Positions 5,320-54,958 are shown, counted from the first letter of the stretch. The stretch is 64,000 nt of DNA from an uncultured Planctomycetia bacterium (GCA_964373715.1 CAYJVR010000002.1:5714-69713); one strand, 5' to 3'. Program-made: numbers and translations. Notes: a model not told the origin generated them from the sequence alone.

Positions 5320-5335
5320 AACCTCCCGCGAGCGC

Positions 5336-5559: not shown

Positions 5560-5617
5560 AAAGCAGGGAGGATTTTCCGTCAACACCAGTCGCTTTAGAC
5601 GTGGAATCAGCGTCATC

Positions 5618-6997: not shown

Positions 6998-6999
6998 CC

Positions 7000-8574
7000 A
7001 TGCCGAAATGCCGATTGCTGTTGCGCGTGTTTTTCGTGTCAGCGGCGCTTCTGACAGCCTTGCCGGCGTGGGCCCAGCCCGCTCTTCCGGCCGGGATTCC
7101 CTCAGCCGCGCCGGAGGGAGCAGTCCGGGTGGGAGTGGCGGCGGCCGTCAAGGGAACGGTGGAGATTACCCCCCCAGGAGCTGTCGGAAGAATCGCCGCA
7201 AGCGGCCAGCCGATTTTCTTGGGAGACACCGTGACGACCAATGCGCAAGGGGTTCTGCAGATCCTTCTTCTCGATGAGACGACGTTTACGATCGGCCCGA
7301 ACAGCGCCATTGTGATCGATGAATTCGTTTATGATCCGGCGACCTCCGCCGGAAAATTGAGCGCCCGGGTAGTTAAGGGAGCGTTCCGGTTCGTCACTGG
7401 GAAAATCGCAAAAAAGAACCCGAAAGACATGGAAGTAAAACTGCCCTCCGGCACCATCGGGATCCGCGGCACGATTGTGGCGGGGTTTGTTCAGGGAGAG
7501 GCAGCCAAAGTGGTCCTTTTGGGGCCCGGGCCGAGAAACAATACCGGAGACCCGCCCGGCCGTATCGTGGTCAGCAACGTGGCGGGCGGGAAGCTCCATG
7601 AGGTGGCGTTGACCCGGCCTGGATTTGGAACGGAGATCAAAGGGGTTGAAGCGATCCCGTCGCCGCCCGCTCAGGTTCCCGAGGCGGAACTGAACACCCT
7701 CCTCAGCGTGTTTCTGAGCCCTCCCCCTCCACCCGAGCAGACGGAGGGGCCGTCGGGAGCCGGCCAGCAGTCTTCTGGTCAGCAGGGATCGCAGACTCCG
7801 GCAGCAGGGGGGGGCTCAACTACGGGACAGTCATCCAACAGTACGGACGGTTCCGCCGGCACCTCTACCGCTGGATCGGGATCGGAGCCGGGGGGGATGA
7901 GCGACTCGGAAGGGGCGCCGCTCGCCGGCGGGTTTTCGGCGGGAGATTCGACAGCGGGATTTTGGACTGAAGGAGGAACAACGAATCTTGGGAACACAGG
8001 AAGTTTTCAGGATCTGACCGGAGGCCTGGGAGATCTTTCTCAGCAGACTGCTCAGTATACGGCCAATCAATCGGCGCAGATGGGTAATCTGATCGCTACC
8101 CAGGAACAGCTCCGGAGCATTCAAACAGGCGTTTTCCACTATAAAACAAACGGAGCGATCGGCTCATTCGTCCAGACGGTGATGAACGGTTTGCCGGTCC
8201 TTATTTCCGGAACGATCAGCGTACAGGTCAACATTGATTTCGGCGCCCGCGAGCTTGCCGGGACCGTTGGAGGGACAAGCCAATCGAAATACACGCTGGA
8301 TACGCTCAGCTACGGAGGAGACATTTCTGCGGCGGACGTTTCCATCAACCCCCAATCGTTTTCCACCGGAACCGGCCCCGCCGTTTTTCAGGATCCTTCG
8401 GGAGGAGTCCATCAGGTGAGCTTGGAGGTCAGGAACATCGATGGGGCTATCGCCAGCGAAGCGCGGATGGGGGTCACTTACAACACCACCTCCACCGATG
8501 GGGCTGCCAACCGGGATGAAGGCTCTACTCCCACATCGGTGGTAATGCAGCGCGAGGCAGGGGCTGCGCCTTAA
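7000..8574 (+). CDS. Secreted FecR-domain protein with long S/G/T/Q-rich low-complexity linker and C-terminal beta-rich domain
   Basis: SPI-type signal peptide (ALPAWA/QP); FecR-like domain (VKGTVEI...GDTVTTNAQGVLQILLLDETTFTIGPNSAIVIDEFVYDP...FRFVTGKI...GTIGIRGT); ~150-aa S/G/T/Q-rich region; starts 3 nt after the upstream gene. Confidence 0.6.
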   Translation: MPKCRLLLRVFFVSAALLTALPAWAQPALPAGIPSAAPEGAVRVGVAAAVKGTVEITPPGAVGRIAASGQPIFLGDTVTTNAQGVLQILLLDETTFTIGPNSAIVIDEFVYDPATSAGKLSARVVKGAFRFVTGKIAKKNPKDMEVKLPSGTIGIRGTIVAGFVQGEAAKVVLLGPGPRNNTGDPPGRIVVSNVAGGKLHEVALTRPGFGTEIKGVEAIPSPPAQVPEAELNTLLSVFLSPPPPPEQTEGPSGAGQQSSGQQGSQTPAAGGGSTTGQSSNSTDGSAGTSTAGSGSEPGGMSDSEGAPLAGGFSAGDSTAGFWTEGGTTNLGNTGSFQDLTGGLGDLSQQTAQYTANQSAQMGNLIATQEQLRSIQTGVFHYKTNGAIGSFVQTVMNGLPVLISGTISVQVNIDFGARELAGTVGGTSQSKYTLDTLSYGGDISAADVSINPQSFSTGTGPAVFQDPSGGVHQVSLEVRNIDGAIASEARMGVTYNTTSTDGAANRDEGSTPTSVVMQREAGAAP

Positions 8575-39887: not shown

Positions 39888-41462
39888 GTGAGAGAGATAT
39901 TCCCCCAAGGGGTCAAAATCACCGGCCGGCTCACCGAAGAACAGGCCTCCATCCTCACTCCCGAAGCGGTTTTTTTCGTCGCCGCTCTCGCCAGAAAATT
40001 CAATCAACGCCGGGTTAATCTGCTTCGGCAGAGGGAGATCCGCCAGCGGGAGCTGGATGCCGGCCTGTTCCCCGATTTCCTCAACGGCACGCAGGCGATC
40101 CGGGACCAGGACTGGGTTGTGGCCCCCATACCGGAAGATCTTCAGGAACGCAAGGTGGAGATCACCGGTCCGGTGGACCGGAAGATGATCATCAACGCAC
40201 TGAATTCCGGCGCGAGCGTTTTTATGGCCGATTTTGAGGATTCCCACACGCCGACATGGGACAACAACCTCACCGGCCAAGCCAACCTCCGGGATGCCGT
40301 CAACCGGACGATCTCCCACGAAAGCCCCGAAGGGAAGCGCTACGAGCTGAACGATAAGACCGCCGTTTTGATGGTCCGCCCTCGCGGCTGGCACCTCAGC
40401 GAAAAACATATGTTTGTGGACGGTGCGCCGGTCTCCGGCTCCCTGTTCGATTTCGGCCTCTTCTTTTTCCACAACGCGCAAGAGCTGATCCGTCGGGGAA
40501 CTGGCCCCTACTTTTACCTGCCGAAGATGGAGAGCCATCTCGAGGCCCGCCTGTGGAACGACGTTTTCAATGAAGCGCAGGATCTGCTCAAGATCCCTCG
40601 CGGGACTATACGGGCGACTGTTTTGATCGAGACGATCCCGGCGGCGTTCGAAATGGACGAGATTCTCTACGAATTGAAAGAGCATTCGGCGGGTCTCAAT
40701 TGCGGCCGGTGGGATTACATCTTCAGCGTGATCAAGAAATTCAGGAACCACGCCGCTTTTGTTTTCCCCGACCGGGCCCAGGTTACGATGGACAAGCCGT
40801 TCTTGAAGGCCTATGTGGATCTGCTGATCAAGACATGCCACCGCCGGCGGATTCATGCGATGGGAGGAATGGCGGCGCAGATCCCGATCAAATCGGACCC
40901 TCAGGCGAACGAATGGGCGCTCGAGAAGGTACGAGCCGATAAATTGCGCGAGGTGAAGGCCGGCCATGACGGGACCTGGGTGGCCCATCCGGGCTTGGTT
41001 CCGGTGGCGATGGAGATTTTCAACCGGCATATGAAGGGGCCGAATCAGCTCGATGTGAGAAGGGATGAGGTTCGCGTGATCCCGAAGGATCTGCTGTCGG
41101 TTCCGTCCGGCGAGATGACCGAGGCGGGTTTGAGGGTCAATATCAACGTCGGGGTCCGGTACCTGGAGTCCTGGCTGAGGGGGGTCGGATGCGTCCCTCT
41201 GAATTATCTGATGGAGGACGCGGCGACGGCCGAGATCTCCAGGTCCCAAATCTGGCAGTGGATCCGCCATAAGACGAAGCTGTCCGACGGAACGCTGGTC
41301 AGCCGGGAGTTGGTCGCCCGGATCATGCAGGAGGAGTTGGTTTCCATCCAGAAAACGGAGGGGAACCGGCTTGCGGAAGCAGCGGAACTGTTTGTCCGGA
41401 TGATGACGGCGCCGGAGATTCCGGAGTTCCTGACTCTGGCCGCCTACGAGTTGATTGACTGA
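39888..41462 (+). CDS. aceB: Malate synthase A
   Basis: ~524 aa; conserved blocks [13 protein letters not shown], catalytic-Asp region ...[12 protein letters not shown]...; GTG start. Confidence 0.85.
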
Positions 41463-41488
41463 ATAATTCCCAACAAGGAGCCTGACAG

Positions 41489-42817
41489 GTGGAAAAAAGC
41501 GAATTTGTCGCCAAGGTGTCCGCAGAGTGGAAAGGGTCGCTGCGCTGGAAAGGGATATGCCGTCCCTATTCGGCCGAGGACGTTTATAAGCTCAAAGGGA
41601 CCGTCTACCGGGAATACTCGCTTGCCAGGCTGGGCGCCAAGCGCTTATGGAAGCTGCTCAACGAAGAGCCGTACGTTCATGCGTTAAGCGCTGTGACCGG
41701 CAACCAGGCGATCCAGCAGGTCAGGGCCGGCCTGAAGGCGGTCTACGTCAGCGGCTGGCAGGTGGCCGCCGACATGAACAACGCGTTGAAGATGTACCCT
41801 GACCAGAGCCTGTATCCCTCCGACAGCGTTCCGTTCCTGATCAAGAGGATCAACAACTCCCTGCTGCGTGCCGACCAGATACATCATCTGAAAGGGGACA
41901 AGAGCATTTACTGGATGGCGCCGCTGGTGGCTGACGCCGAGGCCGGGTTCGGGGGCCCTTTGCAGACCTTCGAGATCATGAAATACATGATTGAGGAGGG
42001 GGTTGCGGGCGTCCATTTCGAGGACCAGCTGGCCTCGGTCAAGAAATGCGGCCATCTGGGCGGTAAAGTGCTTGTCCCGACCCGTGAGTTCATCGCAAAG
42101 CTGGTGGCGGCGAGGCTCGCGGCCGATGTCTGCGGGATTGACACTCTGCTGGTTGCCAGGACCGACGCCGACAGCGCCACGCTCTTGACGAGCGATGTGG
42201 ATCCCTACGATAGGCCGTTCATCTGCAGTAGGGAACGGACCCACGAAGGGTTCTACCAGGTCAAGGCCGGCCTCGATCAGGCGATCGCCCGGGCTTTGGC
42301 TTACGCCCCTTACGCCGATCTGCTCTGGTTTGAAACATCCAAGCCGAATCTTGATCAGGCTAGGATTTTCGCCGAGACAATCCGCAAAAAATACCCGGGC
42401 AAACTGCTGGCCTACAACTGCTCCCCCTCTTTCAACTGGAAACTCAATCTCAAGGATGATGTGATCGCCCGGTTCCAGCAGGAACTGGGGAAGATGGGCT
42501 ATAAGTTCCAGTTTGTCACCCTGTCGGCTTTCCACGTGCTCAACCACAGTATGTTCAAGCTGGCCAAGGGGTACAAGGCCAAAGGGATGGCCGCCTACTC
42601 AGAACTCCAGGAAGAGGAGTTCGCTTCCGAGAAACAGGACGGCTACGAGGCGATCAAGCACCAGGAATTCGTCGGTACCGGCTACTTCGATGTTGTGACC
42701 CAGGTAGCGATGCAGGGGCTCTCGGCAACGCTCGGCCTGGACGGCTCCACGGAAACGGAGCAGTTCGGTTCCTGCACCGAGAAGAAGAACGATTCCGCCA
42801 GGAAGAAAAAACGCTGA
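41489..42817 (+). CDS. aceA: Isocitrate lyase
   Basis: Signature [14 protein letters not shown]; SGWQ; 442 aa; GTG start; immediately after aceB. Confidence 0.9.
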
Positions 42818-42823
42818 GCCGAT

Positions 42824-44239
42824 ATGATTTCCGCATGGCATAGAACGAAAATTATTTGCACGCTGGGCCCTGCCACCGACAAGCCGGAAATGCTTGAACA
42901 GATGATCCTCCGGGGAATGGATGTGGCCCGGATCAATACCGCCCACGGCAGCCGGGAGTCGCATGCCAAGCAGATCCGGCTTGTCCGGGAGGCGGCCGCG
43001 GCATGCGGCGAGCCGGTGGCGGTTTTAGTGGATTTACCGGGGCCAAAATTCCGGGTCGGCGATCTGAAGGAGCCGTTTGCCGAGCTGCGTTCAGGGACCC
43101 GGGTTATCCTCGGCGAAAAGGCAGCGCAGGAGAAGGTGATCCCCTTGAGCCACCCCCACCTGATCCGGGAGCTGCGCGTCGGAGAAGCGGTCTATCTGGC
43201 GGATGGTTCGGTCCGGCTTCAGGTAGTCGAGACCGGTACCGACTACGCGGTTTGCCAGGTGGAGATCGGCGGGGTGATCCGCTCCGGTGCCGGAATCAAT
43301 GTTCCGCAGTCCCAGCTTTCCACCGAGATCCCGACTGAAGAGGATGTGGAACAGATCGTTTTCGCGCTCGAGCAGAAGGCCGATTGGCTCGGCGTTTCCT
43401 TCGTGAGGACCGCGGAGGACATCCGCCGCCTTCGTGCGCATCTGCCGGCGGAACGGTCTCCCAAGGTGATGGCGAAGATCGAGAAACAGCAGGCGGTGGC
43501 CGAGCTGGAGGCGATCATTTACGCAGCCGATGGAGTGATGGTGGCCCGGGGAGACTTGGGGGTGGAAACCGAGCTGGCAGAGGTGCCGCTTCTTCAGAAG
43601 AAGATTGTTCGGCTGGCCAACGAGCTTGGCCGCCCGGTGGTGGTGGCGACCCAGATGCTGGAGTCCATGATCAATCACGGCCAGCCCACCCGGGCCGAGG
43701 TGACCGACGTGGCGAATGCCCTGCTGGATGGAGCGGACGGTGTGATGCTCTCCGGAGAAACCGCGGTCGGGCGGTTTCCTCTTCAGGCGGTCGAGATGCT
43801 TGGCAAGGTGGTGACGGCGACCGAAAACAACTATCCTTACGGTGGCATCCTTCAGGAAGCCGCGCAGCGGCTGTCGAGTTCTTCCGAGGAGGCGATGAGC
43901 CTTGTGGCGTGCCGGCTTTCACAGGAGCTTGGCGCCAAGGCGATCGTCACCCCTGTTTCGAGGATGCAGACGGCACTACGGATCTCCCGGTTCCGGCCGA
44001 AGGCTCCGATTTTGGCGGTCTCCAAGTCTGAAGCTCTCTGCAGGCAGTTGGCCGCGGCTTGGGGTGTGGCGCCCATTTTCAGTGCTGCAATTGACCGTAC
44101 GGAGCTGTGTGTGGCAAAGGCCAAGGAATGGCTTGTCCAGAGGCAGATGGCGGCCCCCGGCGATCCGGTAGTCGTTCTCTCCGCTTCCGATCCTTCCGGC
44201 GGGCATTTGAGCGACACCGTCGAGATCGTCCGCCTGTAA
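42824..44239 (+). CDS. pyk: Pyruvate kinase
   Basis: N-terminus TKIICTLGPA; MVARGDLGVE active-site stretch; 471 aa. Confidence 0.9.
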   Translation: MISAWHRTKIICTLGPATDKPEMLEQMILRGMDVARINTAHGSRESHAKQIRLVREAAAACGEPVAVLVDLPGPKFRVGDLKEPFAELRSGTRVILGEKAAQEKVIPLSHPHLIRELRVGEAVYLADGSVRLQVVETGTDYAVCQVEIGGVIRSGAGINVPQSQLSTEIPTEEDVEQIVFALEQKADWLGVSFVRTAEDIRRLRAHLPAERSPKVMAKIEKQQAVAELEAIIYAADGVMVARGDLGVETELAEVPLLQKKIVRLANELGRPVVVATQMLESMINHGQPTRAEVTDVANALLDGADGVMLSGETAVGRFPLQAVEMLGKVVTATENNYPYGGILQEAAQRLSSSSEEAMSLVACRLSQELGAKAIVTPVSRMQTALRISRFRPKAPILAVSKSEALCRQLAAAWGVAPIFSAAIDRTELCVAKAKEWLVQRQMAAPGDPVVVLSASDPSGGHLSDTVEIVRL

Positions 44240-44253
44240 AAAGCTGTTTCCCC

Positions 44254-44272
44254 GCCTGCCGGAGAGGCAGGC
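44254..44272 (+). terminator. Stem-loop GCCTGCC-ggaga-GGCAGGC just after pyk (terminator-like, but no U-tract)
   Basis: Perfect 7-bp inverted repeat 15 nt after the pyk stop, followed by a T-poor sequence; function uncertain. Confidence 0.3.
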
Positions 44273-44329
44273 TTCCGCCGTCCGAAAAGAGGGTTTTCCT
44301 CTCTTAGTCGAGATACAATATCCCCTGCA

Positions 44330-45193
44330 ATGGTGAGAAATGTTTTGTTGGTTGTGAAGAAGTCGTCGCGGTCGGCCATCTCCGCCGGTTGGAGGAACTG
44401 GGTGTCTTTCAGGCGGCCCGCGTGGGTCCAGGCGGATATGCGCAGGCAGAGGGATGCCCAGCAAGCGCACCGGGAAACGCTTGCCTGCGTCGAGCGGCTT
44501 CTGCGCGAGAGGCAGGTTCCGTATAGGCTCATTGAGCGGACCGTGAACCTCGATATGGCTGCGTATGATTTGGTGATATCGGTTGGAGGGGACGGGACCT
44601 TTATGGAGGCCGCCCGCTGTGTCCGGAGCCAGCTTCTCTGGGGGATAAATTCCGATCCCGAACGCAGCGTCGGTAGTTTCTGCTCGGCCACCCGGCTTTC
44701 TTTCGGGCTGATTCTGGAGAAGCTGCTTCGCGCGCAGGCGAAGATACAGGAGCTTCAGCGGATCCAGATGACGCTCAACGGCAAACCCTTTGATCTTTTG
44801 ATTATGAACGATCTTTTGGTGACGCACAGTAAACCGGCGGCAACGAGCCGTTATTGGCTTAAAATAGGCCGAAGGCAGGAGGACCACCGTTCTTCCGGGT
44901 TATGGATCGCGACGGCGGCCGGGTCCACCGGGGCGATCCGTTCCGCTGGAGGGAAAGCTCTTTCCCGCGTGTCCAGGCAGCTGCAGTACAGGCCGCGGGA
45001 ACTGTACCGGAGGAGAGGGGTGGATTACAAGCTTAACGGGGGGGTTATCGAGCCTAGGGCGCGTCTCGAGGTTGGGTCCCTCATGAGGGAAGGTTTGATT
45101 TGCGCGGATGGGGAGCATGTGACGGTCCCGTTTCGCTACGGCGATCATTTGGCTGTTTCATTGTCCCCGTACCCGGTTCGGGTGGTCGGTTAG
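44330..45193 (+). CDS. nadK: NAD(+) kinase
   Basis: GGDGT motif, NDLLV, and a conserved C-terminal half (ATAAGSTGAIRSAGG). Confidence 0.8.
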   Translation: MVRNVLLVVKKSSRSAISAGWRNWVSFRRPAWVQADMRRQRDAQQAHRETLACVERLLRERQVPYRLIERTVNLDMAAYDLVISVGGDGTFMEAARCVRSQLLWGINSDPERSVGSFCSATRLSFGLILEKLLRAQAKIQELQRIQMTLNGKPFDLLIMNDLLVTHSKPAATSRYWLKIGRRQEDHRSSGLWIATAAGSTGAIRSAGGKALSRVSRQLQYRPRELYRRRGVDYKLNGGVIEPRARLEVGSLMREGLICADGEHVTVPFRYGDHLAVSLSPYPVRVVG

Positions 45194-45215
45194 GTTTTTA
45201 TCGGAGGCGAAACTC

Positions 45216-45959
45216 GTGATGCAGAACAGGGTGAAAACGACGGCGCAGCTTGTGGTTGAAATGGAAGAGGAGCGGGGACTGCCGTCCGATTTGGCTCCAA
45301 TGGAGGCGGCTCAGCAGCGGATTGAAATGGCGCTGCAGCGCTACGACAAGATGTCGCAGACGATCCTGGACAACACGACGGCTGTTATCTACGCGAAGGA
45401 CGAAAAGGGCAGGTATCTGCTGATCAACCGCTGGTTTGAAAAGCTTTTCCGCGTCACCAAGGAGCAGATGCTCGGGAAAACGGACCACGATTTTTTCCCG
45501 GAAACAATGGCGGATGCCTTCCGGGCGAATGACCGCCAAGTGGCGAAGATAGGCATGCCGATGGAATTCGAAGAGGTTGCCCCCCACGATGACGGAGACC
45601 ACACCTATATCTCCTTGAAATTCCCTCTGTTTGAAGCGGACGGGTCGATCTATTCCGTTTGCGGCATTTCGACCGATATCACGGAGCGCAAAAAAGCGGA
45701 ACAGGAATTCCGCCGGGCATGCCAGCAGTTTGAGATGAAGGTTCAGGCGAGGACCCGCGACCTCATCCGTGCGAACGCGGATCTCCAGCAGAAGGCGGCA
45801 CAGGACCGGGAGACGGAATCGGCGCTGCGCCACGAGATATGCAGGCTCCGCGAGAAAGAGCGGGAAATGGCGGAGAGCGGAAACCGGATAATAGAGTTGA
45901 TGCGCGAGGTCAACGCGCTTTGGTTGGAATCAGGCAAGGACGTCAAATACGGAGTCTAG
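45216..45959 (+). CDS. PAS-domain protein with C-terminal coiled coil (no output domain)
   Basis: PAS core (TAVIYAKDEKGRYLLINRWFEKLF...GISTDITERKKAE) followed by a helical region. Confidence 0.55.
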   Translation: MMQNRVKTTAQLVVEMEEERGLPSDLAPMEAAQQRIEMALQRYDKMSQTILDNTTAVIYAKDEKGRYLLINRWFEKLFRVTKEQMLGKTDHDFFPETMADAFRANDRQVAKIGMPMEFEEVAPHDDGDHTYISLKFPLFEADGSIYSVCGISTDITERKKAEQEFRRACQQFEMKVQARTRDLIRANADLQQKAAQDRETESALRHEICRLREKEREMAESGNRIIELMREVNALWLESGKDVKYGV

Positions 45960-45972
45960 AACGAGAGATCAC

Positions 45973-46896
45973 ATGACGAAACGGGCGGTATTCCTTCTGG
46001 TTCTCTTTTTAGCCGGGATCAGCGCGGCCGGTTCTCTTTCCTACAGAGTTTATCAAAATTCTCAGGAATCGCACAGGCAAAGGCTGGTTCTCGAAAAGAA
46101 GCGGCAGGCATGGGAACAGCTTAGGAAGTCACTGTGGGGTGAGATCCGCGATTTTCACGGGGAGGCAGGAGTCCTGATCGAAGATCTGGGGACCGGCTGG
46201 AAGCTCGGTTACCGATACCAGCAGCGGTTTCCTGCGGCGAGCTTGGTGAAGGTGCCGGTGATGGCCGCCTGTTTTGAAGCCGCCCAACAAGGCAAACTTG
46301 ATCTTTCGGAACAGCTGGTTTTGAAACGATCGGATAAGGTGGGCGGTTCCGGCGTTTTAAGGGGGAAATCTCCGGGAGCAGCGCTGACAATTCGGGAACT
46401 GATCGAGCTGATGGTGACCGAGAGCGACAATACCGCGGCGAACATGCTGATCAGCCGGATTGGGTTTAACACGCTGAACCATTCTTTCGAGCGGCAGGGG
46501 CTGGGAGGCACGGTTCTCGTGAGGAAGATGATGGATTTTTCGAACCGCCGCAACGGGGTGGAGAATTACACTACCGCCGAAGATGTCGCTTCGATTTTGC
46601 GCCGGCTTTACTATTTCCAAGTGGTTAACCCCCTTGTTTCGTCCAAGTGCCTGGAGTTGCTGATGCAGCAGAAGATCAACGACCGGATACCCGCCGGACT
46701 GCCTCCAGAAATCATCGTGGCGCACAAAACGGGCCTTGAGAACGGGGTATGTCACGATTCAGGGATTGTTTTCACCGGAAACGGCAATTACCTCATCACT
46801 GTGCTGACCCGGCATAACGGGAAAACCGCTCAGCCGGCCAAAAAGTTCATCGCCAGACTTTCTTCCTTAACGTACCGGTACATGACGGAGAGTTGA
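45973..46896 (+). CDS. Class A beta-lactamase-fold serine hydrolase (exported)
   Basis: Signal peptide; SxxK (ASLVK), SDN (ESDNTA), KTG (HKTGL) motifs in the correct order and spacing. Confidence 0.65.
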   Translation: MTKRAVFLLVLFLAGISAAGSLSYRVYQNSQESHRQRLVLEKKRQAWEQLRKSLWGEIRDFHGEAGVLIEDLGTGWKLGYRYQQRFPAASLVKVPVMAACFEAAQQGKLDLSEQLVLKRSDKVGGSGVLRGKSPGAALTIRELIELMVTESDNTAANMLISRIGFNTLNHSFERQGLGGTVLVRKMMDFSNRRNGVENYTTAEDVASILRRLYYFQVVNPLVSSKCLELLMQQKINDRIPAGLPPEIIVAHKTGLENGVCHDSGIVFTGNGNYLITVLTRHNGKTAQPAKKFIARLSSLTYRYMTES

Positions 46897-46926
46897 TTTG
46901 CCGATCAGCCTCCATCGAGCCGACAG

Positions 46927-49050
46927 ATGAGGGTTTGGCCGGGACGCCCCTATCCTTTAGGGGCCACGTGGGACGGGGCGGGGGTCAACTTCGCCGTCTA
47001 CGCCGAACACGCCACACGGGTGGAGCTGTGCCTCTTTGATTCTTCCGCCGCCGAAAAAGAATCTTCCCGTATTCCTCTGCCTGAACGGACCGATATGATT
47101 TGGCACGGTTATTTCCCGGATGTCCAGCCGGGGCAGCTCTACGGATACCGGGTCCATGGCCCGTATGAACCAAAGGAGGGGCACCGCTTTAACCCGAACA
47201 AGGTAGTTTTTGACCCCTACGCGAAAGCGGTCGGCCGCTCGCTGAAGTGGCACGATGCCCTTTTCGGTTACAAGATCGGGGATGCGAAGGAAGACCTTTC
47301 TTTCGATGGCCGAGACAGCGCCCCCTTCGCCCCCCTGGGGATGGTCATTGATCCAGTTTTCACATGGGGAGACGACCGGCGTCCGGAGACCCCCTGGCAT
47401 AAAACGATTATCTATGAGGTCCATGTCAAGGGATTCACGAAGAGCCACCCCGGCGTGCCTGAGCCTCTCAAAGGAACTTACGCCGGTTTGGGGTCGGAAG
47501 CGGCGATCCGCCACCTGACCGATTTAGGAATTACCGCGGTTGAACTCATGCCGGTTCACCATCATGCCATTGACCGCCATCTGGTGGAGCGGGGTCTGAG
47601 CAATTACTGGGGATACAACACCTTCGCTTATTTTGCTCCCGATACCCGTTATGCCGCGGCCGATTCCCCTTGGGATGCAGTCCGGGAATTTAAGACAATG
47701 GTCCGATCTCTTCATGCGGCTGGGATCGAAGTGATCCTGGATGTCGTCTATAACCATACCGCCGAAGGGAACCATTTCGGCCCTACGCTCTCCTTCCGGG
47801 GGATCGATAACGACGCCTACTACCGGCTTTTCGCTGCGGAGCCCCGGTTTTACGAGGATTTTACGGGGTGCGGCAACACGCTGAATATGCGCCATCCCCG
47901 GGTTTTGCAGCTGATCATGGACAGCCTCCGCTATTGGGTTCTTGAGATGCGCGTGGATGGCTTCCGGTTCGACCTGGCCAGCGCTTTAGCTAGGGAGCTT
48001 CAAGAGGTGGATAAGCTCAGCGCTTTCTTTGACACGATCGGCCAGGATCCGGTGCTCTCCCGGGTTAAGCTGATCGCGGAACCGTGGGACGTCGGGCAAG
48101 GGGGCTATCAGGTGGGCAATTTCCCGGCTGGATGGGCCGAGTGGAACGGAAAATACCGGGATTCGGTCCGGCGTTTCTGGAAAGGAGAGGGGGGAGCTGT
48201 TTCGGAGTTCGCCACCCGGTTGTGCGGAAGCAGCGACCTCTACGAGCAGGACGGACGGCGTCCCCATGCTAGCATCAATTTTGTTACGTGCCACGATGGG
48301 TTCACTCTTCAGGATTTGGTCGGCTACGAGCGGAAACACAATGAGGCCAACGGCGAGAATAACGCGGACGGAGAAAACAACAACATCAGCTTCAACTGCG
48401 GCGTAGAGGGCCCGACGGAAGCCCGCAAGATCCGACGTTTGCGGGAGAAACAGAAGAGGAATTTCCTGGCGACCCTCTTCCTGTCCCAGGGGGTTCCGAT
48501 GATCCTGGGGGGAGACGAAATCGGCCGGACCCAAAAGGGTAACAACAACGCTTATTGCCAGGACAATGAGATCAGCTGGTTCCGCTGGGATTTCACACAG
48601 GAGGACCGTCAGTTCCTTGAATTCGTGAAGAAGATGATCCGCTTTTGGAAAGACCAGCCGGTCATTCACCGGCGGAAGTTTTTCCAGGGCCGTCCGATCC
48701 GGGGGACGGAAGTCAAGGACCTGATCTGGTTCGACGCTTCCGGAAAAGAGATGACCGATGAAGCCTGGGGAGCCTCCGCCGTCCATGCGGTCGTCGTCCG
48801 TTTGGATGGAGAGGCGATCGATGAGCTGGACGAAAAAGGGGACCGCATTATGGGCGACACATTGCTGCTCCTCATGAACGCTTATCACGAACCGATCCCT
48901 TTCACTCTTCCTTCAGAAGGCATGGACGGGAAATGGGAGCTTCTCTTCGACACATCGGACAGCCAAAAACCTTCCGAATTGCTCTCCGGCGGCATTCCCT
49001 ATCCGCTGGATGGGCCCGCTGTGGCGGTATTCCAACTGGGGAAAAAGTAG
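46927..49050 (+). CDS. glgX: Glycogen debranching enzyme (isoamylase-type)
   Basis: N-terminus [24 protein letters not shown]; GH13 catalytic regions (GFRFDLA, EPWD); 707 aa. Confidence 0.85.
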
Positions 49051-49116
49051 AGTTGGCGCCGGCCAGGCTGAACCCCGTTAAGACTCCTCGACACGTCGAA
49101 GAAACTGGTTTATCTT

Positions 49117-51132
49117 ATGAAGAAAGGGAAAGGCGAGGGTTCTATGGGCAGCCAGACGGCCAGTGAAAAAGGAGTTCATTTGAAAGAACTGAAAACGCTT
49201 GCGGGCGCGGCACCAGTCCTCTCGGGTGTCAGCCTTCTGACCGACGACGATCTGCACCTTTTTAACGAGGGCACGCACTCCTGCCTCTACCGGAAACTGG
49301 GAGCCCATTCGATAACAGCAGCCGGCGTCCAAGGGACCTATTTTGCTGTTTGGGCTCCTGACGCCGGGCAGGTCTGGGTTGTCGGTGATTTTAACGGATG
49401 GCAGAAAGGGAAGCACGGCCTTTCTCCCCGGGGATCTTCCGGAATATGGGAGGGGTTCATCCCGGGCGTCGGCCAGGGCGCTTTGTACAAGTACCGGATC
49501 GTTTCCCGCCGGGGCGGCTATGAAGTGGAGAAATCGGACCCGTTCGGTTTCCGCCATGAGATCCCGCCGAAGACCGCTTCCGTCGTGTGGGACCTCAACT
49601 ACGCCTGGAGTGACCATAAGTGGATGATGACCCGGGCCGAGCGGAACAGCCTCGAAGCGCCAATCTCTATTTACGAAGTCCATCTGGGTTCTTGGATACG
49701 CAAGCCGGAGGAAGGGAACCGGTTCCTCACCTACAGGGAAGTCGCTCCACTCCTGGCCGATTACGTTAAACGGATGGGTTTCACCCATGTGGAGTTGCTG
49801 CCTCTGATGGAGCACCCATTTTACGGTTCCTGGGGATACCAGGTCACCGGGTTCTTCGCACCGACCAGCCGATACGGAACTCCCGAGGATTTCATGTATT
49901 TTGTGGATCTTCTCCACCAGAACGGCATCGGAGTGATTCTCGACTGGGTCCCTTCGCATTTCCCGATGGACCAGCACGGCTTGGCTTTTTTTGACGGCAC
50001 CCACCTTTTCGAGCACGCAGACCCCCGCCAGGGATATCAGCCGGACTGGGGCAGTTCCGTGTTCAATTACGGCCGCAACGAAGTCAAGGCGTTCCTCTTC
50101 AGCAGCGCCCTTTTTTGGCTCGAAAAATATCATGTGGACGGCCTGCGGGTGGACGCGGTCGCCTCCATGCTGTACCTCGATTATTCGCGCAGGGAAGGAG
50201 GATGGATCCCGAACCGTTACGGCGGCCGGGAAAACGTGGAAGCGGCCGAATTCCTGCGCTGGCTCAACAGGGAGGTGTACGACAGATTTCCTGATGTCCA
50301 GATGATTGCCGAAGAATCTACCGCTTGGCCGATGGTGTCGCGCCCGACCTATCTCGGCGGGCTCGGTTTCGGGCTGAAGTGGGATATGGGATGGATGCAC
50401 GACTCCCTCGTCTATTTCACCAAGGACCCGGTCCATCGAAGCTACCACCACAACGAGTTGACTTTCCGGATGCTGTATGCTTTCACCGAGAATTTTGTGC
50501 TGTCCCTTTCGCATGATGAGGTGGTGCACGGCAAGGGTTCGTTGCTGTCGAAAATGCCGGGTGACGACTGGCAGAAGTTTGCGAATTTGAGGCTCCTGTT
50601 CGGCGCTATGTACGGCCAGCCCGGGAAGAAACTGCTTTTCATGGGAGGAGAGTTGGGGCAGTGGAACGAGTGGAATCACGAGCAGAGCCTTGACTGGCAC
50701 CTGCTGGTGTATCCGCTGCACGCGCGCCTGCAGAGGTGGGTACGCGACCTGAATCAGATGCACGCGGCCGAACCTGCCCTGCATAAGGAGGATTTTTCGC
50801 CGGCCGGGTTCGAGTGGATTGACTGCCATGATACCCACCAGTCGGTATTGAGCTTCATCCGGAAAGACGAATCCGGCGGCTGTCCCATCCTTATCGTTTG
50901 CAACTTCACGCCGGTCCCCCGGCTCCATTACCGGGTCGGTGTCCCTCACGGCGGTTTCTGGAAAGAGATATTGAACAGCGACGCGCGCGATTACGGAGGT
51001 TCAGGCCTCGGGAACCTGGGGGGCAGCCAGGCGGAGCATGTGCCCGCGCACGGCAGGCCGTTCTCTCTGAGCCTCTGCCTGCCTCCTTTGGCGATCGTTT
51101 TCTTAAAAAGCGGTGGAACAACATGTCGTTAG
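49117..51132 (+). CDS. glgB: 1,4-alpha-glucan branching enzyme
   Basis: GH13 branching-enzyme blocks ([29 protein letters not shown]); 671 aa. ATG 49144 is an alternative start. Confidence 0.9.
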
Positions 51133-52361
51133 AGGCTCTTTGGGAAATGATCCGGACGATCGATTTGGCCGATATTCTGGACATCAGCGTCGTCGTCATT
51201 CTGATCTACTGCATCCTGATCTGGTTCAAGCAGACCCGGGCCGCCTTCGTCGCCCGCGGGATACTGATCTTCGCGATCTTCTTCTTTGTTGCGCGCCAGA
51301 CCAAGATGTATCTGACCACATGGATATTCCAGGGTTTCTTCGCTGTTTTTCTGATCGCTCTCGTTGTCATTTTTCAGGAGGAGCTGCGCCGGTTTTTCGA
51401 GCGGCTGGCCGCTTTAGGCCCGCAGCGCCGGGTTGCCAGGCCGATACAATCCGAGGAGGTGGAAGCCTTGGTCAGAACGGTCGCCCAGTTCGCGCGGGAA
51501 AGGATCGGGGCTCTCATCGTTCTGAAGGGGAAGGACCCGTTAGACCGGCACTTAAGCGGCGGCTATGAACTGGACGGACGGCTGTCCGAGGCGCTCTTGG
51601 CGAGCATCTTTGATTCCCATTCCGAGGGGCATGACGGAGCGGTCATTGTGGAGGGGGACCGGATCATCCGGTTTGCCGTCCAACTGCCTCTTTCAAAGGA
51701 ATTTGAGAAGCTCTCGGGCACCGGCACGCGCCACGCGGCGGCGCTTGGCCTTTCCGAGAGGACCGACGCGATGTGCATCGCTGTTTCCGAGCAGAAGGGA
51801 ACGATTTCAATTGCCCAAGCGGGTGAGATCACCGCTGTTCCGGACCTGCCGGTCCTTCAGAAACGAATCGCTGTTTTTGTTCGGGAAGGGAAAAATATTC
51901 CCGCCCAAAAAAGGTGGTACGGGTTTTTCCGGGAGCACACCCTGGAGAAGGTGGTTTCGCTTAGTTTCGCGGTGATTCTTTGGGTGGTTTTCGCGCAGGA
52001 ACTCAAGCCCGTAGACCGGATTTTCATGGCCCCGATCGAGGTGCACAACTTGCCCGTGAATCTCGGTGTCGAGAGAGTCAAGCCTGAGAGGATCCGGGTC
52101 CGGCTGGCCGGTCTGAAACGGGACTTCGGTATGCTGGATCCGAAGGGCATCAGGATCCACATCGACCTGGACCAGGCCGCCGCCGGGGGCCGAAGGGTTC
52201 TGGTTTCGGAAGACAACCTGCCGATTCCGCGAGCGCTGCGGCTTGTGAACGCGGAACCCGCCTACGTCGAGATTTTGCTGACAGAAGCGCCGGAAGGCAA
52301 AAGGGGGAACCCTTCAGGATTCATCTTCAGCCGTCCTTCAGCCGGTTCCAAGAAAAACTGA
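51123..52361 (+). CDS. cdaA: Diadenylate cyclase CdaA with fused C-terminal TM plus YbbR/CdaR-like domain
   Basis: Three N-terminal TM helices; DAC domain ([46 protein letters not shown]); an extra ~140 aa with one TM and a beta-rich YbbR-like segment. The track ORF 50898 has a spurious extension; ATG 51123 overlaps the glgB end by 10 nt. Confidence 0.75.
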
Positions 52362-52363
52362 TT

Positions 52364-53407
52364 ATGGAGAAAGATCCCCAAGATCCGGTTTTAGCTTTTC
52401 TCAAGGAAAACAGTAAAGAACTCTCTCCCCTTTTGATTCTCACTCATAATCATCCCGACCCCGATTCGATCGCCAGCGCTTGGGCCCTGGCTTTCTTGGC
52501 CGAGAAGCTTCACGGAATCCGGTCAAAGATCGTTTACGGCGGGATCATCGGGCGGATGGAGAACAAGGTGATGGTGCAGATTCTGCGTATACCGATCCGT
52601 TCGGTGAAGCCGTCGGACTTTGAGCGGTATTCGGCGATCGCCGTGGTGGATACGCAGCCCCCGTTCCAGAACAACTGTTTTCCGGCCAAACGCAAGGCCG
52701 ATATCGTCATCGACCACCACCCTTTGCACAAGAAGACGGAATCCAAATTTATCTTGATAAACCAGGCGGCAGGGGCCACCACGACGCTGCTGGCGGAAGC
52801 GCTCCTCGCCTCGGGGCTGGATATACCGGCCTCTCTGGCGACGGCGCTTGTTTACGGCATCGGATCCGAAACCCAGAATCTGGGCCGTGAAGCCGGGGCC
52901 AGGGACATGAATGCCTACCGGGCATTGTTCGCCAAAGCCAGCATGAAGAGCTTGTCGAAGATACAGAACCCTCAAAGGCCCAGCTCTTTTTTTAGCGTGT
53001 TAGGCAGGGCGATCCAGCAGGGCTTTCTCATCAAGGGGATCATCGGCGTCCATTTGAGGAGCGTCCCGAGCCAGGACATTGTCGCCCATATGGCCGACTT
53101 TTTGTTAACCCATGAGAAGATGAAGTGGTCTATCGTGACCGGCCGTTATCAAGGGAGGCTTTACGTCTCTTTAAGGACGAACAACACCCGCGCGGAGGCG
53201 GGAAAACTGCTGTGGAAGCTGCTCGGAGGAGGCACATCCGCCGGCGGTCACGGGATGATTGCCGGCGGATCGGTAGATGTCGGCGCGGAGGCTTCGGAGA
53301 CGGTCTGGCATGAGACCGAGGAGAAGCTGACCGAAGCGTTCCTGCGCAGACAAGGGATCAAGCCCCCCTACCAGCTCGGATATCCTTTCCGCCTGCTGAA
53401 CACGTAG
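52364..53407 (+). CDS. Standalone DHH/DHHA1 phosphoesterase (NrnA / c-di-AMP phosphodiesterase type)
   Basis: DHH motifs I-III (HNHPDPD, VVDTQ, VIDHHP) and DHHA1 motif GGHG(MIAGG); 347 aa; starts 3 nt after cdaA. Confidence 0.75.
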   Translation: MEKDPQDPVLAFLKENSKELSPLLILTHNHPDPDSIASAWALAFLAEKLHGIRSKIVYGGIIGRMENKVMVQILRIPIRSVKPSDFERYSAIAVVDTQPPFQNNCFPAKRKADIVIDHHPLHKKTESKFILINQAAGATTTLLAEALLASGLDIPASLATALVYGIGSETQNLGREAGARDMNAYRALFAKASMKSLSKIQNPQRPSSFFSVLGRAIQQGFLIKGIIGVHLRSVPSQDIVAHMADFLLTHEKMKWSIVTGRYQGRLYVSLRTNNTRAEAGKLLWKLLGGGTSAGGHGMIAGGSVDVGAEASETVWHETEEKLTEAFLRRQGIKPPYQLGYPFRLLNT

Positions 53408-53432
53408 CAACGGTGAATTCGTACCTGTTTCA

Positions 53433-53606
53433 ATGCAAGACGACGAAGAATTTGAAGAGGAAGGATCCGAGGAGGAGTCCTCGCAACCGCAGGGCAATCT
53501 TTACTGCCCCGTTTGCGGATCGGACGAGGTTCGTTTGATTGAAACGCGGCACAAGCAGGGTTTCTACGAGTGCGAAAGCTGCCATCTGACGTTTGAAGAA
53601 AACTGA
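53433..53606 (+). CDS. Small acidic zinc-ribbon protein (57 aa)
   Basis: Absent from the track (<60 aa): MQDDEEFEEEGSEEE...CPVCGS...CESCH = CxxC-x17-CxxC; the ATG follows 25 nt after the DHH gene. Confidence 0.4.
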   Translation: MQDDEEFEEEGSEEESSQPQGNLYCPVCGSDEVRLIETRHKQGFYECESCHLTFEEN

Positions 53607-53642
53607 GCGTGAAAGCCGGTCTGGCGGAAGAGGTATACGGTT

Positions 53643-54239
53643 TTAGCGGGCGAGTGTCACCAGTTTCTGCCACCAACCGTCGCTTTTCCAACTCTTCATC
53701 CGGCGGTAGATCTTTTTTGCACTCTTGGTTTTCAGCAGATGGGCGGGCCGATTCATCCAATCGATCGCCCGGGGGTGGTGTCCCTGTTCGGCGTATTCCT
53801 TCCCCTGGATCATGCATTCCAAAAGGTCGGCATCCCGCGCCACCCAGCTGGCTTTGGTCCGCTGGGTCAGCAGATCCTTGACCCAGCCGGAAAGCTCCCG
53901 GCGCATCGCCGGCGGCAGGCCGGCCAGCTGTTCGGACGAGGCCTTCCATTCCGCCGCCCGGAAATCAATATACCGGTGGCCGACCTTGTGCAGGTCGTTG
54001 ATCCGGGATTCATGCAGGTCGTTGATCAGCCCGATCATCACGGCGGGGTACGGGTCAATCCTTTCCATTTTCGCCAGCAGGTAGGCGAGAAATGCCGCCC
54101 TGAAACAGTGGTCCGCCACGCTTTCGGCGTTTTTCATCCCGAGCATCCACCAGCCGCTCCGGCGCACCGATTTCAGGATGCCGGCTTCGGCAGTGATGTC
54201 CAGCACCGCCTCAACCGTGGATTTCTTTCTCTTCGGCAT
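53643..54239 (-). CDS. HD-domain phosphohydrolase (YfbR-like 5'-nucleotidase family)
   Basis: RSGWW...ESVADHCFRAAFLAYLL...LINDLHESRINDL matches the YfbR/HD_3 pattern; start chosen at the ATG overlapping the rlmB stop (alternative 54263). Confidence 0.6.
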   Translation of the reverse strand: MPKRKKSTVEAVLDITAEAGILKSVRRSGWWMLGMKNAESVADHCFRAAFLAYLLAKMERIDPYPAVMIGLINDLHESRINDLHKVGHRYIDFRAAEWKASSEQLAGLPPAMRRELSGWVKDLLTQRTKASWVARDADLLECMIQGKEYAEQGHHPRAIDWMNRPAHLLKTKSAKKIYRRMKSWKSDGWWQKLVTLAR

Positions 54240-54958
54240 CAGTTCTTCTCCTTGCGGCGGCACGTGATTTCGTAGCCGATCAGCGCTGCCGCCGTGGCTA
54301 CATTGAATGATAAAGAAGCTCCGGGCATCGACAGGGTGAGCGTCAGGTCCAGATGTTTCGTCAGCCCTGGCCGGATCCCGCCGCCTTCAGAGCCGAGGAT
54401 GACCCCCAGGGGGAAGGGCAGCTTTGCCTGAGCCAGAGGCTCACCGCTGTCGGCGTCGGCGCCCGCGATCCAGTAGCCGGCTTTTTTTGCCAGCTCGCAT
54501 GCCCGGACCAGGTTGGTGACGCGGGATACCGGGACATAATTCTCTCCGCCGCAGGCCACCCGGAGGACCGTTTCGTTTACCTCGGTTGAATCATGTTTCG
54601 GCAGAACGAGAGCGATCCCTCCGAAGCAGGCCGTTGACCTGAGGATCGCCCCGAGGTTCTGCGGGTCGGTCACCCGGTCCAGAAGAAGGAGCAGCGGCCG
54701 CGGCTCCGGTTTGGCAAGCAGTTCCTCTAATTCGGTATAATGGAATTCCTCCACATCCGCCAAAACTCCTTGGGCGTGGATCGTCCCTGTTTTCTTGGCG
54801 AAATCTTCCTTTGAAAGGGAGGTGAAGGGAAGGCTCGCCGCCTTGGCGGCCTGCACCACCTCGGGGGCGTCCACCCCCTGATCCAGGTAGAGGGTACGGA
54901 TCGTCCCGGGGGCGGCCGCGAGGCGTTCCATGACTGGGCGCTTTCCATAAAGACGCAT
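54239..54958 (-). CDS. rlmB: 23S rRNA (guanosine-2'-O)-methyltransferase, SpoU/TrmH family (RlmB-like)
   Basis: SpoU motifs (LLLLLDRVTDPQNLGAILRS, GSEGGGI, LSMPGASLSFNVATAAAL); the track ORF 54239..55537 carries a spurious N-terminal extension antisense to the next gene. Confidence 0.75.
   Translation of the reverse strand: MRLYGKRPVMERLAAAPGTIRTLYLDQGVDAPEVVQAAKAASLPFTSLSKEDFAKKTGTIHAQGVLADVEEFHYTELEELLAKPEPRPLLLLLDRVTDPQNLGAILRSTACFGGIALVLPKHDSTEVNETVLRVACGGENYVPVSRVTNLVRACELAKKAGYWIAGADADSGEPLAQAKLPFPLGVILGSEGGGIRPGLTKHLDLTLTLSMPGASLSFNVATAAALIGYEITCRRKEKN

Follow-up and report, generated by a model that had tools for sequence, protein, structure and literature searches.

A putative c-di-AMP synthesis and turnover module with a CdaA-YbbR fusion among glycogen genes of an uncultured bacterium

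We analyzed a 64,000-nt stretch of DNA from an uncultured Planctomycetia bacterium (the window) and found a run of four genes on the + strand, glgX-glgB-cdaA-DHH, in which the last two probably form a compact module for the synthesis and turnover of c-di-AMP placed among glycogen genes. The fusion of a YbbR domain to CdaA is not peculiar to this locus but widespread, as is the pairing of cdaA with a DHH gene. The new value of the locus is comparative and lies in the recurrent DHH pairing and the recurrent alpha-glucan, MgtE and CBS/RCK_C neighbors. The occurrence of the module beside glycogen genes in many uncultivated bacteria points to a connection of c-di-AMP with carbon storage that can be tested.

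The gene boundaries were determined from the sequence and compared with NCBI gene calls. The upstream gene of the run, glgX (46927..49050), is an NCBI gene call and encodes a 707-aa glycogen debranching enzyme with Pfam CBM_48, Alpha-amylase and Isoamylase_C domains. It is followed by glgB (49117..51132; begun at window position 49144 in the NCBI record), which encodes a 1,4-alpha-glucan branching enzyme with CBM_48, Alpha-amylase and Alpha-amylase_C domains. The cdaA gene (51123..52361) extends from the ATG at 51123 to the TGA at 52359-52361, and an identical call is present in the NCBI record GCA_947085675.1, in agreement with the 412 codons of the initial annotation. Its start overlaps the end of glgB (stop TAG at 51130-51132) by 10 nt, as had been described, and a Shine-Dalgarno-like GGTGG is located 6 nt 5′ of the ATG. 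The DHH gene (52364..53407, 347 aa) starts with the ATG at 52364, and the spacing from cdaA is 2 nt (52362-52363), not the 3 nt given previously. Judging from gene spacing, glgX, glgB, cdaA and the DHH gene likely comprise an operon.

The N-terminal part of the cyclase matched Pfam CdaA_N (PF19293) at residues 10-88 (51150..51386; E 9e-9, 35.8 bits with the cutoff at 23.8), and hydropathy reached peaks in scan segments starting at 9-25, 38-42 and 62-71, which points to three membrane helices. The catalytic DAC domain (PF02457) was found at residues 119-235 (51477..51827; E 3e-35, 120.8 bits with the cutoff at 27), and residues 17-238 aligned to a solved full-length CdaA chain. The DGA motif (D171-G172-A173) was invariant in 120 relatives. 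In GTRHAAALG (residues 201-209), R203-H204-A205 occupies the position where canonical CdaA has RHR (GTRHRAA); R203 and H204 were likewise invariant across the 120 relatives. Most of the remaining DAC positions are invariant too. The third residue was Ser, Ala or Thr, and Arg was found there in none of three sets of family members (0/120, 0/71 with a recognizable motif and 0/80). The TIGR00159 equivalog model gave 182.3 bits, just under its cutoff of 188.8. The RH[S/A/T] motif together with this score indicates that the catalytic properties could differ from those of model CdaA. On the basis of its domains and motifs, the product of 51123..52361 is predicted to be a CdaA-type diadenylate cyclase that synthesizes c-di-AMP from ATP.

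An additional transmembrane helix after the DAC domain, also proposed initially, was evident as a hydrophobic segment at approximately residues 272-296 with a K/R-rich upstream flank. Hydropathy and the CdaR-like HMM described below place the helix itself at approximately residues 276-296 (51948..52010), directly before the YbbR domain; it is also kept in tail-less relatives. Its orientation was deduced from the cytoplasmic DAC domain, so that the YbbR domain would lie outside the cytoplasm. The tail domain comprises approximately 92 residues (about 297-388; 52011..52286) and is followed by a 24-residue low-complexity end. The YbbR-like fold assigned to it in the initial annotation was borne out by the analyses below, whereas its size, given there as about 120 residues, was overestimated. 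An HMM scan had been suggested for DAC, YbbR, DHH and DHHA1; it detected DAC, DHH and DHHA1, and Pfam YbbR (PF07949) gave no match in the cyclase tail even at E <= 10. The PF07949 cutoff was passed by two fused relatives (P0300 and P0317), and among the 120 top-ranked homologues, roughly 10 carried a precomputed match to this family.

We then compared a profile of the tail family with PDB sequences. The first five matches were all YbbR entries, namely 5hqh (Listeria Lmo2119, E 8.6e-6) and 2l3u (E 9.8e-5), followed by 2kq1, 3lyw and 2kpu. The AlphaFold2 model of the tail domain had a pLDDT of 95. In a Foldseek search with this model, the best six matches were YbbR entries with TM scores of 0.64-0.77, including 5hqh (the Listeria CdaR), 3lyw, 4qdy, 2kq1 and 2kpu, and ribosomal L25-type proteins (L25/TL5) ranked after them, as expected for the L25-like YbbR fold. 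An HMM built from standalone CdaR-like proteins with a membrane helix and two to three YbbR domains matched cyclase residues ~264-388 with its positions 6-129 (E 1.4e-31) and had no other match in the whole window. The tail thus corresponds to the standalone proteins from their membrane anchor through their first YbbR domain. Profile and structure model both support the suggestion that cyclase and regulator are fused, and the C-terminal extension is best described as a CdaR-like piece joined to CdaA.

The second protein contains a DHH domain (PF01368) at residues 24-166 (52433..52861; E 3.7e-10, 40.6 bits against a cutoff of 28.1) and a DHHA1 domain (PF02272) at residues 236-306 (53069..53281). 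The DHHA1 match was marginal (26.4 bits against 25.9), and the structure match confirmed the fold. The catalytic set of motifs I-IV and the DHHA1 GGH, that is, D32 and D34 (motif I, HPDPD), D96 (motif II), D117-H118-H119 (motif III) and G294-G295-H296, was invariant in 38 homologues; the DHHA1 domain carries VSLRT and GGHGMIAGG motifs. Motif IV has Glu169 in place of Asp, with Glu in 78 of 80 members, and an additional invariant GGxxGRxEN loop is present. The best full-length profile matches were the GdpP catalytic domain (E 1.6e-11), Rv2837c and TM1595. Fold matches were obtained with the GdpP catalytic domain, TM1595, Rv2837c, DhhP and Pde2 (E 1e-16 to 1e-19, TM 0.56-0.72). With c-di-AMP/pApA phosphodiesterases as its closest full-length solved relatives, the protein conforms to the standalone DHH-DHHA1 enzyme recognized initially. 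It lacks the features of GdpP itself, as it starts straight at the DHH domain without membrane helices, PAS or degenerate GGDEF. Its identity to any characterized enzyme is only 17-20%, and it belongs to a distinct clade. Taken together, synteny and fold similarity suggest that the protein probably hydrolyzes c-di-AMP and/or pApA; sequence and fold cannot separate hydrolysis of c-di-AMP from that of pApA or nanoRNA.

Long CdaA proteins are distributed across Omnitrophota, Elusimicrobiota and soil lineages, and the tail profile matched 998 representative proteins at E <= 1e-10. Of 80 species-level loci, 74 have a DHH gene that directly adjoins cdaA in the same orientation, with gaps mostly from -4 to +25 nt and in both gene orders; the pairing also occurs in loci L084, L085, L168 and L169 and on the contig of P0040. 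The YbbR fusion and the DHH pairing can occur apart: a soil clade has fused cdaA genes that lack a neighboring DHH gene, and in many Elusimicrobia the pairing is found without the YbbR domain. Neither the window nor the flanking regions (approximately 6-10 kb) of 83 loci yielded a glmM signature or a separate cdaR.

We considered other readings of the two enzymes. The lack of Arg as the third motif residue in all family members with a recognizable motif (0/271) and the TIGR00159 score could mean that a DAC domain with RH[S/A/T] is catalytically altered, either inactive or forming another nucleotide product, in which case the module would not be a standard c-di-AMP system. An RHR-to-AAA triple mutation in M. 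tuberculosis DisA abolished ATP binding and activity (PMC3328451), but all three residues were changed in that mutant, which is thus uninformative about the third residue alone. Selection on catalysis is indicated by the invariance of R203, H204, DGA and the majority of other DAC positions, and the neighboring MgtE and CBS/RCK_C proteins are effectors of the c-di-AMP type; we consider an altered DAC very unlikely. A role of the DHH protein as a general, NrnA-like housekeeping nanoRNase/pAp phosphatase, which at most clears pApA among many dinucleotides, is improbable to a lesser degree. Such a role would fit an essential protein that is better conserved than CdaA (53-77% identity across phyla vs approximately 45-55%), fold matches that include B. 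subtilis NrnA, a B. fragilis nanoRNase and S. aureus NrnA/Pde2, the JGI name of the homologues ('nanoRNase/pAp phosphatase', COG0618), and the 5 loci, among 79 that could be assessed, in which the DHH gene occurs without cdaA. Translational coupling to cdaA in 74 of the 80 species-level loci, and in either gene order, would nevertheless hardly be expected of a housekeeping enzyme, the NrnA equivalog model (NF053633) scored 13.7 bits with the cutoff at 350, and the top full-length profile match was the GdpP catalytic domain. The two roles overlap, because pApA hydrolysis is a nanoRNase-type reaction. Least credible is a role of the DHH protein in glycogen synthesis, as a pyrophosphatase or polyphosphatase that clears the PPi of the ADP-glucose step. 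The best matches of its N-terminal half were indeed family II pyrophosphatases (single-sequence E 1e-5, profile 8e-12), and in loci L007 and L011 the DHH gene accompanies glgX, glgP and glgB without cdaA. These matches were restricted to the DHH half, however; the C-terminal half is DHHA1 with a GGH motif and not DHHA2, the family II pyrophosphatase equivalog (PRK05427) gave 44.8 bits with the cutoff at 283 and covered the N-terminal half only, and pyrophosphatase folds matched with a TM of approximately 0.47 compared with 0.57-0.72 for GdpP, TM1595 and Rv2837c.

The association of the c-di-AMP module with glycogen genes was speculative at first, and it recurs in other genomes. Tail-bearing cdaA was adjoined by glgB, glgX or glgP in 11 of 21 loci, and in the distant soil clade, glgE/treS-mak/malQ/glgB adjoined fused cdaA in 17 of 24 informative dereplicated clusters; these counts are not phylogenetically independent and are inflated by shared ancestry. 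That the adjacency reflects incidental gene order, with c-di-AMP and alpha-glucan metabolism uncoupled, is the most serious of the alternatives, although we judge it rather doubtful. Many cdaA-DHH loci have unrelated neighbors (NADH dehydrogenase genes, TamB and an acetyltransferase), and glucan genes were near none of 53 tail-less Elusimicrobia loci. Incidental order does not readily account for recurrence with non-homologous or differing glucan genes (glgX/glgB, malQ, glgP, glgE and treS-mak), in upstream, downstream and convergent arrangements, and across clades whose CdaA is only approximately 45% identical. A rough estimate puts chance adjacency at approximately 1%, assuming a small set of glucan genes among the few thousand of a genome. 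In cyanobacteria, the connection through c-di-AMP and SbtB reportedly acts via the branching enzyme GlgB. The control of glycogen synthesis by c-di-AMP via SbtB in these bacteria offers an experimental precedent (PMC8654305). An MgtE or CNNM-CBS-TrkA_C protein followed the cdaA-DHH pair in approximately 10 loci, and c-di-AMP is known to be bound by MgtE and RCK_C/CBS proteins of B. subtilis (PMC10636490). The repeated placement of the module by alpha-glucan enzymes suggests a link of c-di-AMP to glycogen/trehalose metabolism.

We propose the following mechanism for the module. Three N-terminal helices would anchor the cytoplasmic DAC domain, which would condense two ATP molecules to c-di-AMP. 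Helix 4 would return the chain across the membrane and present the single YbbR domain to the periplasm, so that helix 4 and YbbR may act as the one-polypeptide equivalent of the CdaR membrane anchor and first YbbR domain. In Firmicutes, the activity of CdaA is modulated by CdaR, which contacts the membrane portion of the cyclase. Control of this type would presumably be exerted here in cis, with an envelope-side cue passing through helix 4 and the bundle of helices 1-3 to the pairing of DAC domains. The downstream DHH gene would be translationally coupled, and its cytoplasmic product would most likely split c-di-AMP and/or linear pApA to AMP. Because the two genes are coupled, synthesis and removal would be made in a fixed proportion and the level set via regulation of activity. 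Ion and osmolyte balance is a known role of c-di-AMP. The repeated position of the module beside alpha-glucan enzymes and CBS/RCK_C ion-transport proteins suggests two outputs, which may be ion/osmolyte balance and glycogen/trehalose metabolism.

The cyclase shares with Firmicutes CdaA (DacA) the three-helix anchor, the cytoplasmic DAC domain and even the numbering of DGA (171-173), and differs in having RHA instead of RHR and a TIGR00159 score slightly below the cutoff. As in Firmicutes CdaR, a membrane helix precedes a YbbR part on the outer side, a location that is predicted in the present protein. In the Firmicutes cdaA-cdaR-glmM operon, the regulator is a separate protein with four YbbR domains, whereas here one YbbR domain is fused to the C-terminus of the cyclase. 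The Firmicutes operon includes glmM, which is absent from the window and from the flanks of related loci, and its flanking genes are for cell-wall precursors instead of glycogen.

The DHH protein has the same two-domain DHH-DHHA1 fold as Rv2837c/CnpB, T. maritima TM1595, B. burgdorferi DhhP and S. aureus Pde2/NrnA. All catalytic motifs, a length of approximately 340 residues and a predicted cytoplasmic location are common to these characterized standalone enzymes and the present protein, which is set apart by its low identity, the Glu for Asp in motif IV and the GGxxGRxEN loop. GdpP has an N-terminal membrane/PAS/GGDEF region that the present protein does not. The DHH gene here is genetically coupled to cdaA, and we know of no such coupling for the characterized standalone enzymes. 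Proximity of cyclase and degrader has a Gram-negative parallel in Porphyromonas gingivalis, where the cyclase PGN_0523 is encoded near the phosphodiesterase-like PGN_0521 (PMC9259658). The putative degrading enzyme of P. gingivalis is of the HD/PgpH type instead of DHH, and the search of the authors for a DHH-DHHA1 c-di-AMP phosphodiesterase in this species found none. Unlike the fusion described here, cdaR of P. gingivalis stands as a gene of its own at a distant locus (PMC9259658). Although the cyanobacterial link is biochemical, via a PII-like receptor, and the one observed here is genomic only, c-di-AMP is likewise tied to glycogen metabolism in the c-di-AMP-SbtB report (PMC8654305).

Four genes on the same strand followed one another in the ORF list of the window: glgX (46927..49050), glgB (49117..51132), cdaA (ATG at 51123 to TGA at 52359–52361, 412 codons) and a gene for a DHH-DHHA1 protein, hereafter the DHH gene (52364..53407, 347 codons). 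Pfam confirmed all four, with CdaA_N and DAC matches in cdaA and DHH and DHHA1 matches in the DHH gene. The same genes were called on contig CAMTXI010000002.1 of MAG GCA_947085675.1, which is identical to the window, and the nearest named relatives in the homologue comparison were Candidatus Omnitrophica. As the initial annotation stated, cdaA overlaps glgB by 10 nt (TAG of glgB at 51130–51132); the gap between cdaA and the ATG of the DHH gene at 52364 is 2 nt, not the 3 nt given there. The sequence GGTGG is located 6 nt upstream of the cdaA ATG. A mechanical ORF (50898–52361) would start within glgB, at TTG 50898; the ATG at 51123 is favoured both by alignments of homologues and by the NCBI call. 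The window contained no second DAC gene and no second DHH gene of the same clade. Rfam at gathering thresholds matched no RNA family in the whole window, and thus no c-di-AMP riboswitch was found there. Scanning 45000–54500 for sigma-70 promoters and terminators was uninformative, with promoter-like sites at or below shuffle expectation.

Upstream of glgX, a same-strand run (39888–46896) encodes malate synthase, isocitrate lyase, pyruvate kinase, an unannotated ORF of 263–287 aa, a PAS-domain protein and a beta-lactamase-like protein. The beta-lactamase-like gene is also found 5′ of glgX in L084, a related genome locus with a 70%-identical relative. The DHH gene is followed by a convergent HD_3 gene of the YfbR-like 5′-nucleotidase type (53643–54263, minus strand) and then by genes for an rRNA/tRNA SpoU methylase and a PfkB protein; this trio recurs in L084, four genes further off.

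The DAC domain of CdaA comprises residues 119–235, and the alignment to solved CdaA structures spans residues 17–238. The DGA motif is located at 171–173, with numbering identical to that of B. subtilis CdaA. The second canonical motif is R203-H204-A205 (51729–51737) and not RHR, where the solved structures have GTRHRAA. The third residue of this motif was never Arg in 120 database relatives (Ser, Ala or Thr), nor in 71 of 74 CdaA proteins encoded at related genome loci, the motif being unrecognisable in the remaining 3. It was L or M in 6 short-form CdaA proteins, and Ser, Gly or Thr, never Arg, in 80 soil-metagenome relatives belonging to a distant clade approximately 45% identical to the window CdaA (hereafter, the soil clade). 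The TIGR00159 score of the window CdaA was 182.3, just below the cutoff of 188.8. The DAC domain is followed by a K/R-rich linker, a hydrophobic helix at approximately 276–296 (helix 4) and then about 92 residues, designated here as the tail.

Pfam gave no match to the isolated tail, even at E ≤ 10, and the domain was therefore identified through a family profile and structure instead. When a profile of 39 aligned homologous tails was compared with PDB sequences, the top five matches were YbbR entries, the first being Listeria Lmo2119 (E 8.6e-6). The AlphaFold2 model of the tail had a pLDDT of 95, and its Foldseek matches were the YbbR structures 5hqh, 3lyw, 4qdy, 2kq1, 2kpu and 2l3u (TM 0.64–0.77), followed by ribosomal L25/TL5 proteins, whose relationship to the YbbR fold is known (PMC10636490). 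We also built a CdaR-like HMM from 39 standalone proteins, each combining a membrane helix with 2–3 YbbR domains. Five sampled standalone proteins of that size and one of 400 aa were pure YbbR proteins according to Pfam. Positions 6–129 of this HMM aligned to CdaA residues ~264–388 (E 1.4e-31), and no other ORF of the window matched. Because the tail profile, the model, Foldseek and the CdaR-like HMM agree, we assign the extension as the counterpart of a CdaR-like regulator's predicted membrane anchor plus its first YbbR domain, in fusion with the cyclase. The initial annotation had described such a fusion, with an additional TM helix and one YbbR-like repeat; these features are borne out, and the domain has ~92 residues rather than ~120. 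The AlphaFold comparison of the extension that it proposed gave YbbR structures as top matches, and the proposed HMM scan detected DAC, DHH and DHHA1 but not YbbR in the tail.

The best 120 CdaA homologues were all 387–497 aa long, each spanning at least 88% of the window CdaA, and came from Omnitrophica, Elusimicrobia, Binatia, Methylomirabilota, Eisenbacteria and Deltaproteobacteria-labelled genomes; approximately 10 of them had a precomputed Pfam YbbR match. A search of 1.84 billion representative proteins with the tail profile gave 5820 matches at E ≤ 1e-3 and 998 at E ≤ 1e-10; the 150 matches listed comprised fused cyclases of ~400 aa, fusions of 470–515 aa having two YbbR repeats, and standalone CdaR-like proteins. 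Two longer fused proteins passed the Pfam YbbR cutoff, so that the architecture is visible in public domain databases. The CdaA-YbbR fusion is widespread and partly visible in such databases. A second YbbR-like repeat was also present in fused cyclases of 482–526 aa at four related loci (L024, 4389–5969; L078, 432–1880; L079, 4518–5966; L082, 1435–2907), so that the number of repeats in the fusions is one or two.

We scanned with the DHH alignment, taking one genome per species, and kept the best 80 loci of 510 relatives. In 74/80, cdaA was the immediate same-strand neighbour of the DHH gene, with gaps of mostly −4 to +25 nt; five gap values were artefacts of over-extended ORF calls, which did not affect the adjacency count. 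The pairing was also seen in individually examined loci, sometimes in reverse order. In five assessable loci of the best 80, the DHH gene occurred without cdaA. CdaA carried the YbbR tail in 21 of the 74 paired loci and was tail-less in the other 53. In many Elusimicrobia, CdaA is ~290 aa long, retains helix 4 and stops right after it, without a YbbR domain (L015, L017, L019–L023 and ~45 more loci from Elusimicrobia, with cdaA ending close to locus position 5977). All 53 tail-less proteins fell in one nested clade of a rough neighbour-joining tree, which under parsimony suggests that the YbbR domain was lost once.

Glucan genes recurred around this pair in several orders: glgX-cdaA-DHH-glgB in L006; cdaA-DHH-glgB in L010, L013, L014, L029 and the contig of the database relative P0040; glgX-malQ-glgB-cdaA-DHH in L084; and glgP-LOG-DHH in L011 and L012. 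In other loci, the pair was followed by a CNNM/CBS/TrkA_C gene and glgP (L025, L027, L031, L072 and L076, at ~7000–8300; L168, 8248–9546) or by MgtE (L005, L009, L016 and L024, ~7000–8300; L085, 9026–10336). MgtE, RCK_C domains and CBS domains are known to bind c-di-AMP in B. subtilis (PMC10636490), and for this reason the MgtE and CNNM-CBS-TrkA_C (RCK_C) proteins are candidate effectors. In the species-level set, glucan genes adjoined 11/21 tail-bearing and 0/53 tail-less loci (Fisher's test, 8e-8), counts that are not an independent sample because the tail-less forms are one clade. No glucan, MgtE or CNNM gene was near the tail-less Elusimicrobia cdaA in any of these loci. A second scan, with the soil clade CdaA as query, yielded 80 metagenomic loci, in all of which CdaA carried the YbbR tail and no DHH gene was adjacent; glgE, treS-mak, malQ and glgB were located downstream of cdaA. 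After dereplication at 85% identity, the glucan-gene arrangement was present in 17/24 informative clusters, and variant arrangements included a convergent treS. A search for the phosphohexomutase active-site motif found no glmM in the window and the flanks of 83 loci, and no separate cdaR was found in the window or these flanks.

Two loci without cdaA, L007 (glgX-DHH-MFS transporter, 1–3128) and L011 (glgP-LOG-DHH-glgB, 1637–7415), are unaccounted for by the main explanation and hint at a link between DHH and glycogen that does not involve the cyclase. L007 also contains a LAGLIDADG homing-endonuclease-like ORF (7213–7926) downstream of an enolase gene.

The DHH clade was tightly conserved, with 53–77% identity across 38 homologues, in which HPDPD (motif I), D96, D117-H118-H119, VSLR and GGH..AGG were invariant, as was an additional GGxxGRxEN loop at residues 59–67. 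In motif IV, Glu169 (52868–52870) replaces the usual metal-binding Asp, as in 78/80 related loci. The NCBIfam NrnA model scored 13.7 bits (cutoff 350), and membership was rejected. Among the full-length PDB matches of the family profile, the GdpP catalytic domain ranked first (E 1.6e-11), followed by Rv2837c (E 1.3e-8) and by TM1595, which was matched over residues 20–195 only (E 9e-8). The AlphaFold2 model (pLDDT 91) matched the GdpP catalytic domain, Rv2837c, TM1595, a Deinococcus RecJ-like protein, Borrelia DhhP, S. aureus Pde2 and B. subtilis NrnA (E 1e-15 to 1e-19, 17–20% identity). The gene was originally described as a standalone DHH-DHHA1 enzyme, in agreement with its Pfam domains and the fold matches to Rv2837c, DhhP and Pde2. 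L169 has a 41%-identical relative (4687–5778), located 5′ of a fused cdaA, in which DQH substitutes for DHH and motif IV contains Asp; it may be a divergent or impaired variant.

Overall, the observation in the initial annotation was confirmed and its interpretation supported, with small corrections. In the simplest reading, the module would serve c-di-AMP synthesis and turnover, with the cyclase carrying a CdaR-type sensor in cis. Since the reported action of Firmicutes CdaR runs through the membrane portion of CdaA (PMC8573169), helix 4 is by analogy the likely transmitter of the sensor signal. A cyclase with RH[S/A/T] that behaves unlike the model enzymes remains an improbable alternative. 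The DHH protein probably provides the degrading activity, since its gene is nearly always accompanied by cdaA. Its profile and modelled fold place it among predicted nucleotide-hydrolysing DHH-DHHA1 enzymes, a level at which hydrolysis of c-di-AMP, pApA and nanoRNA is indistinguishable; a mainly housekeeping nanoRNase remains a less likely competitor to the degrading role suggested by the pairing. A pyrophosphatase is unlikely, and membership of that family was rejected: the protein does match family II pyrophosphatases, but with 44.8 bits against a cutoff of 283 and only in its N-terminal half.

For the synthesis and turnover module, the neighbouring genes would point to two outputs, ion-transport effectors and alpha-glucan/trehalose metabolism. 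TreS interconverts trehalose and maltose, and c-di-AMP has a general role in osmolyte balance, which an alpha-glucan/trehalose output would accordingly fit. By analogy, this output may also fit the c-di-AMP-SbtB-glycogen link described in a cyanobacterial study (PMC8654305). That the glycogen adjacency is functionally meaningless remains a less likely alternative here. We offer a broader joint reading speculatively and consider it rather improbable as a whole: the four-helix CdaA-YbbR would form a c-di-AMP module that senses the envelope, with alpha-glucan/trehalose metabolism as its main conserved output across several phyla that are largely uncultivated; GH13-type enzymes or glycogen phosphorylase would be direct c-di-AMP effectors or GlmM-like protein regulators of the cyclase; and the coupled DHH protein would represent a dedicated, previously uncharacterised c-di-AMP phosphodiesterase clade marked by the motif IV Glu.

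CdaA, the YbbR/CdaR domain and the DHH-DHHA1 phosphodiesterase are themselves parts of known kinds. The literature searched, outside the 2023 census of DAC architectures, yielded nothing relevant on a CdaA-YbbR fusion, a cdaA-DHH operon or a diadenylate cyclase with GlgE. The family-wide combination of four-helix CdaA and an altered RHR motif, the dedicated DHH clade coupled to it and the recurrent association with alpha-glucan genes all appear to be undescribed there. The mechanism by which CdaR controls CdaA is recognised as an open problem (PMC8573169); for structural work and truncation experiments on this control, a natural single-chain CdaA with one YbbR domain would be a minimal system. 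The tight pairing with cdaA makes a distinct DHH clade the candidate for c-di-AMP degradation in Omnitrophota and Elusimicrobiota. To our knowledge, nothing is experimentally established on c-di-AMP in these two phyla. The recurrent glycogen, GlgE-pathway, trehalose, MgtE and CBS/RCK_C neighbours provide a concrete list of candidate effectors. Because trehalose and glycogen are interconvertible, the glucan link, if true, would tie the connection between c-di-AMP and glycogen to the established osmolyte control by c-di-AMP. It would also extend this connection, to date demonstrated in cyanobacteria, to unrelated bacteria.
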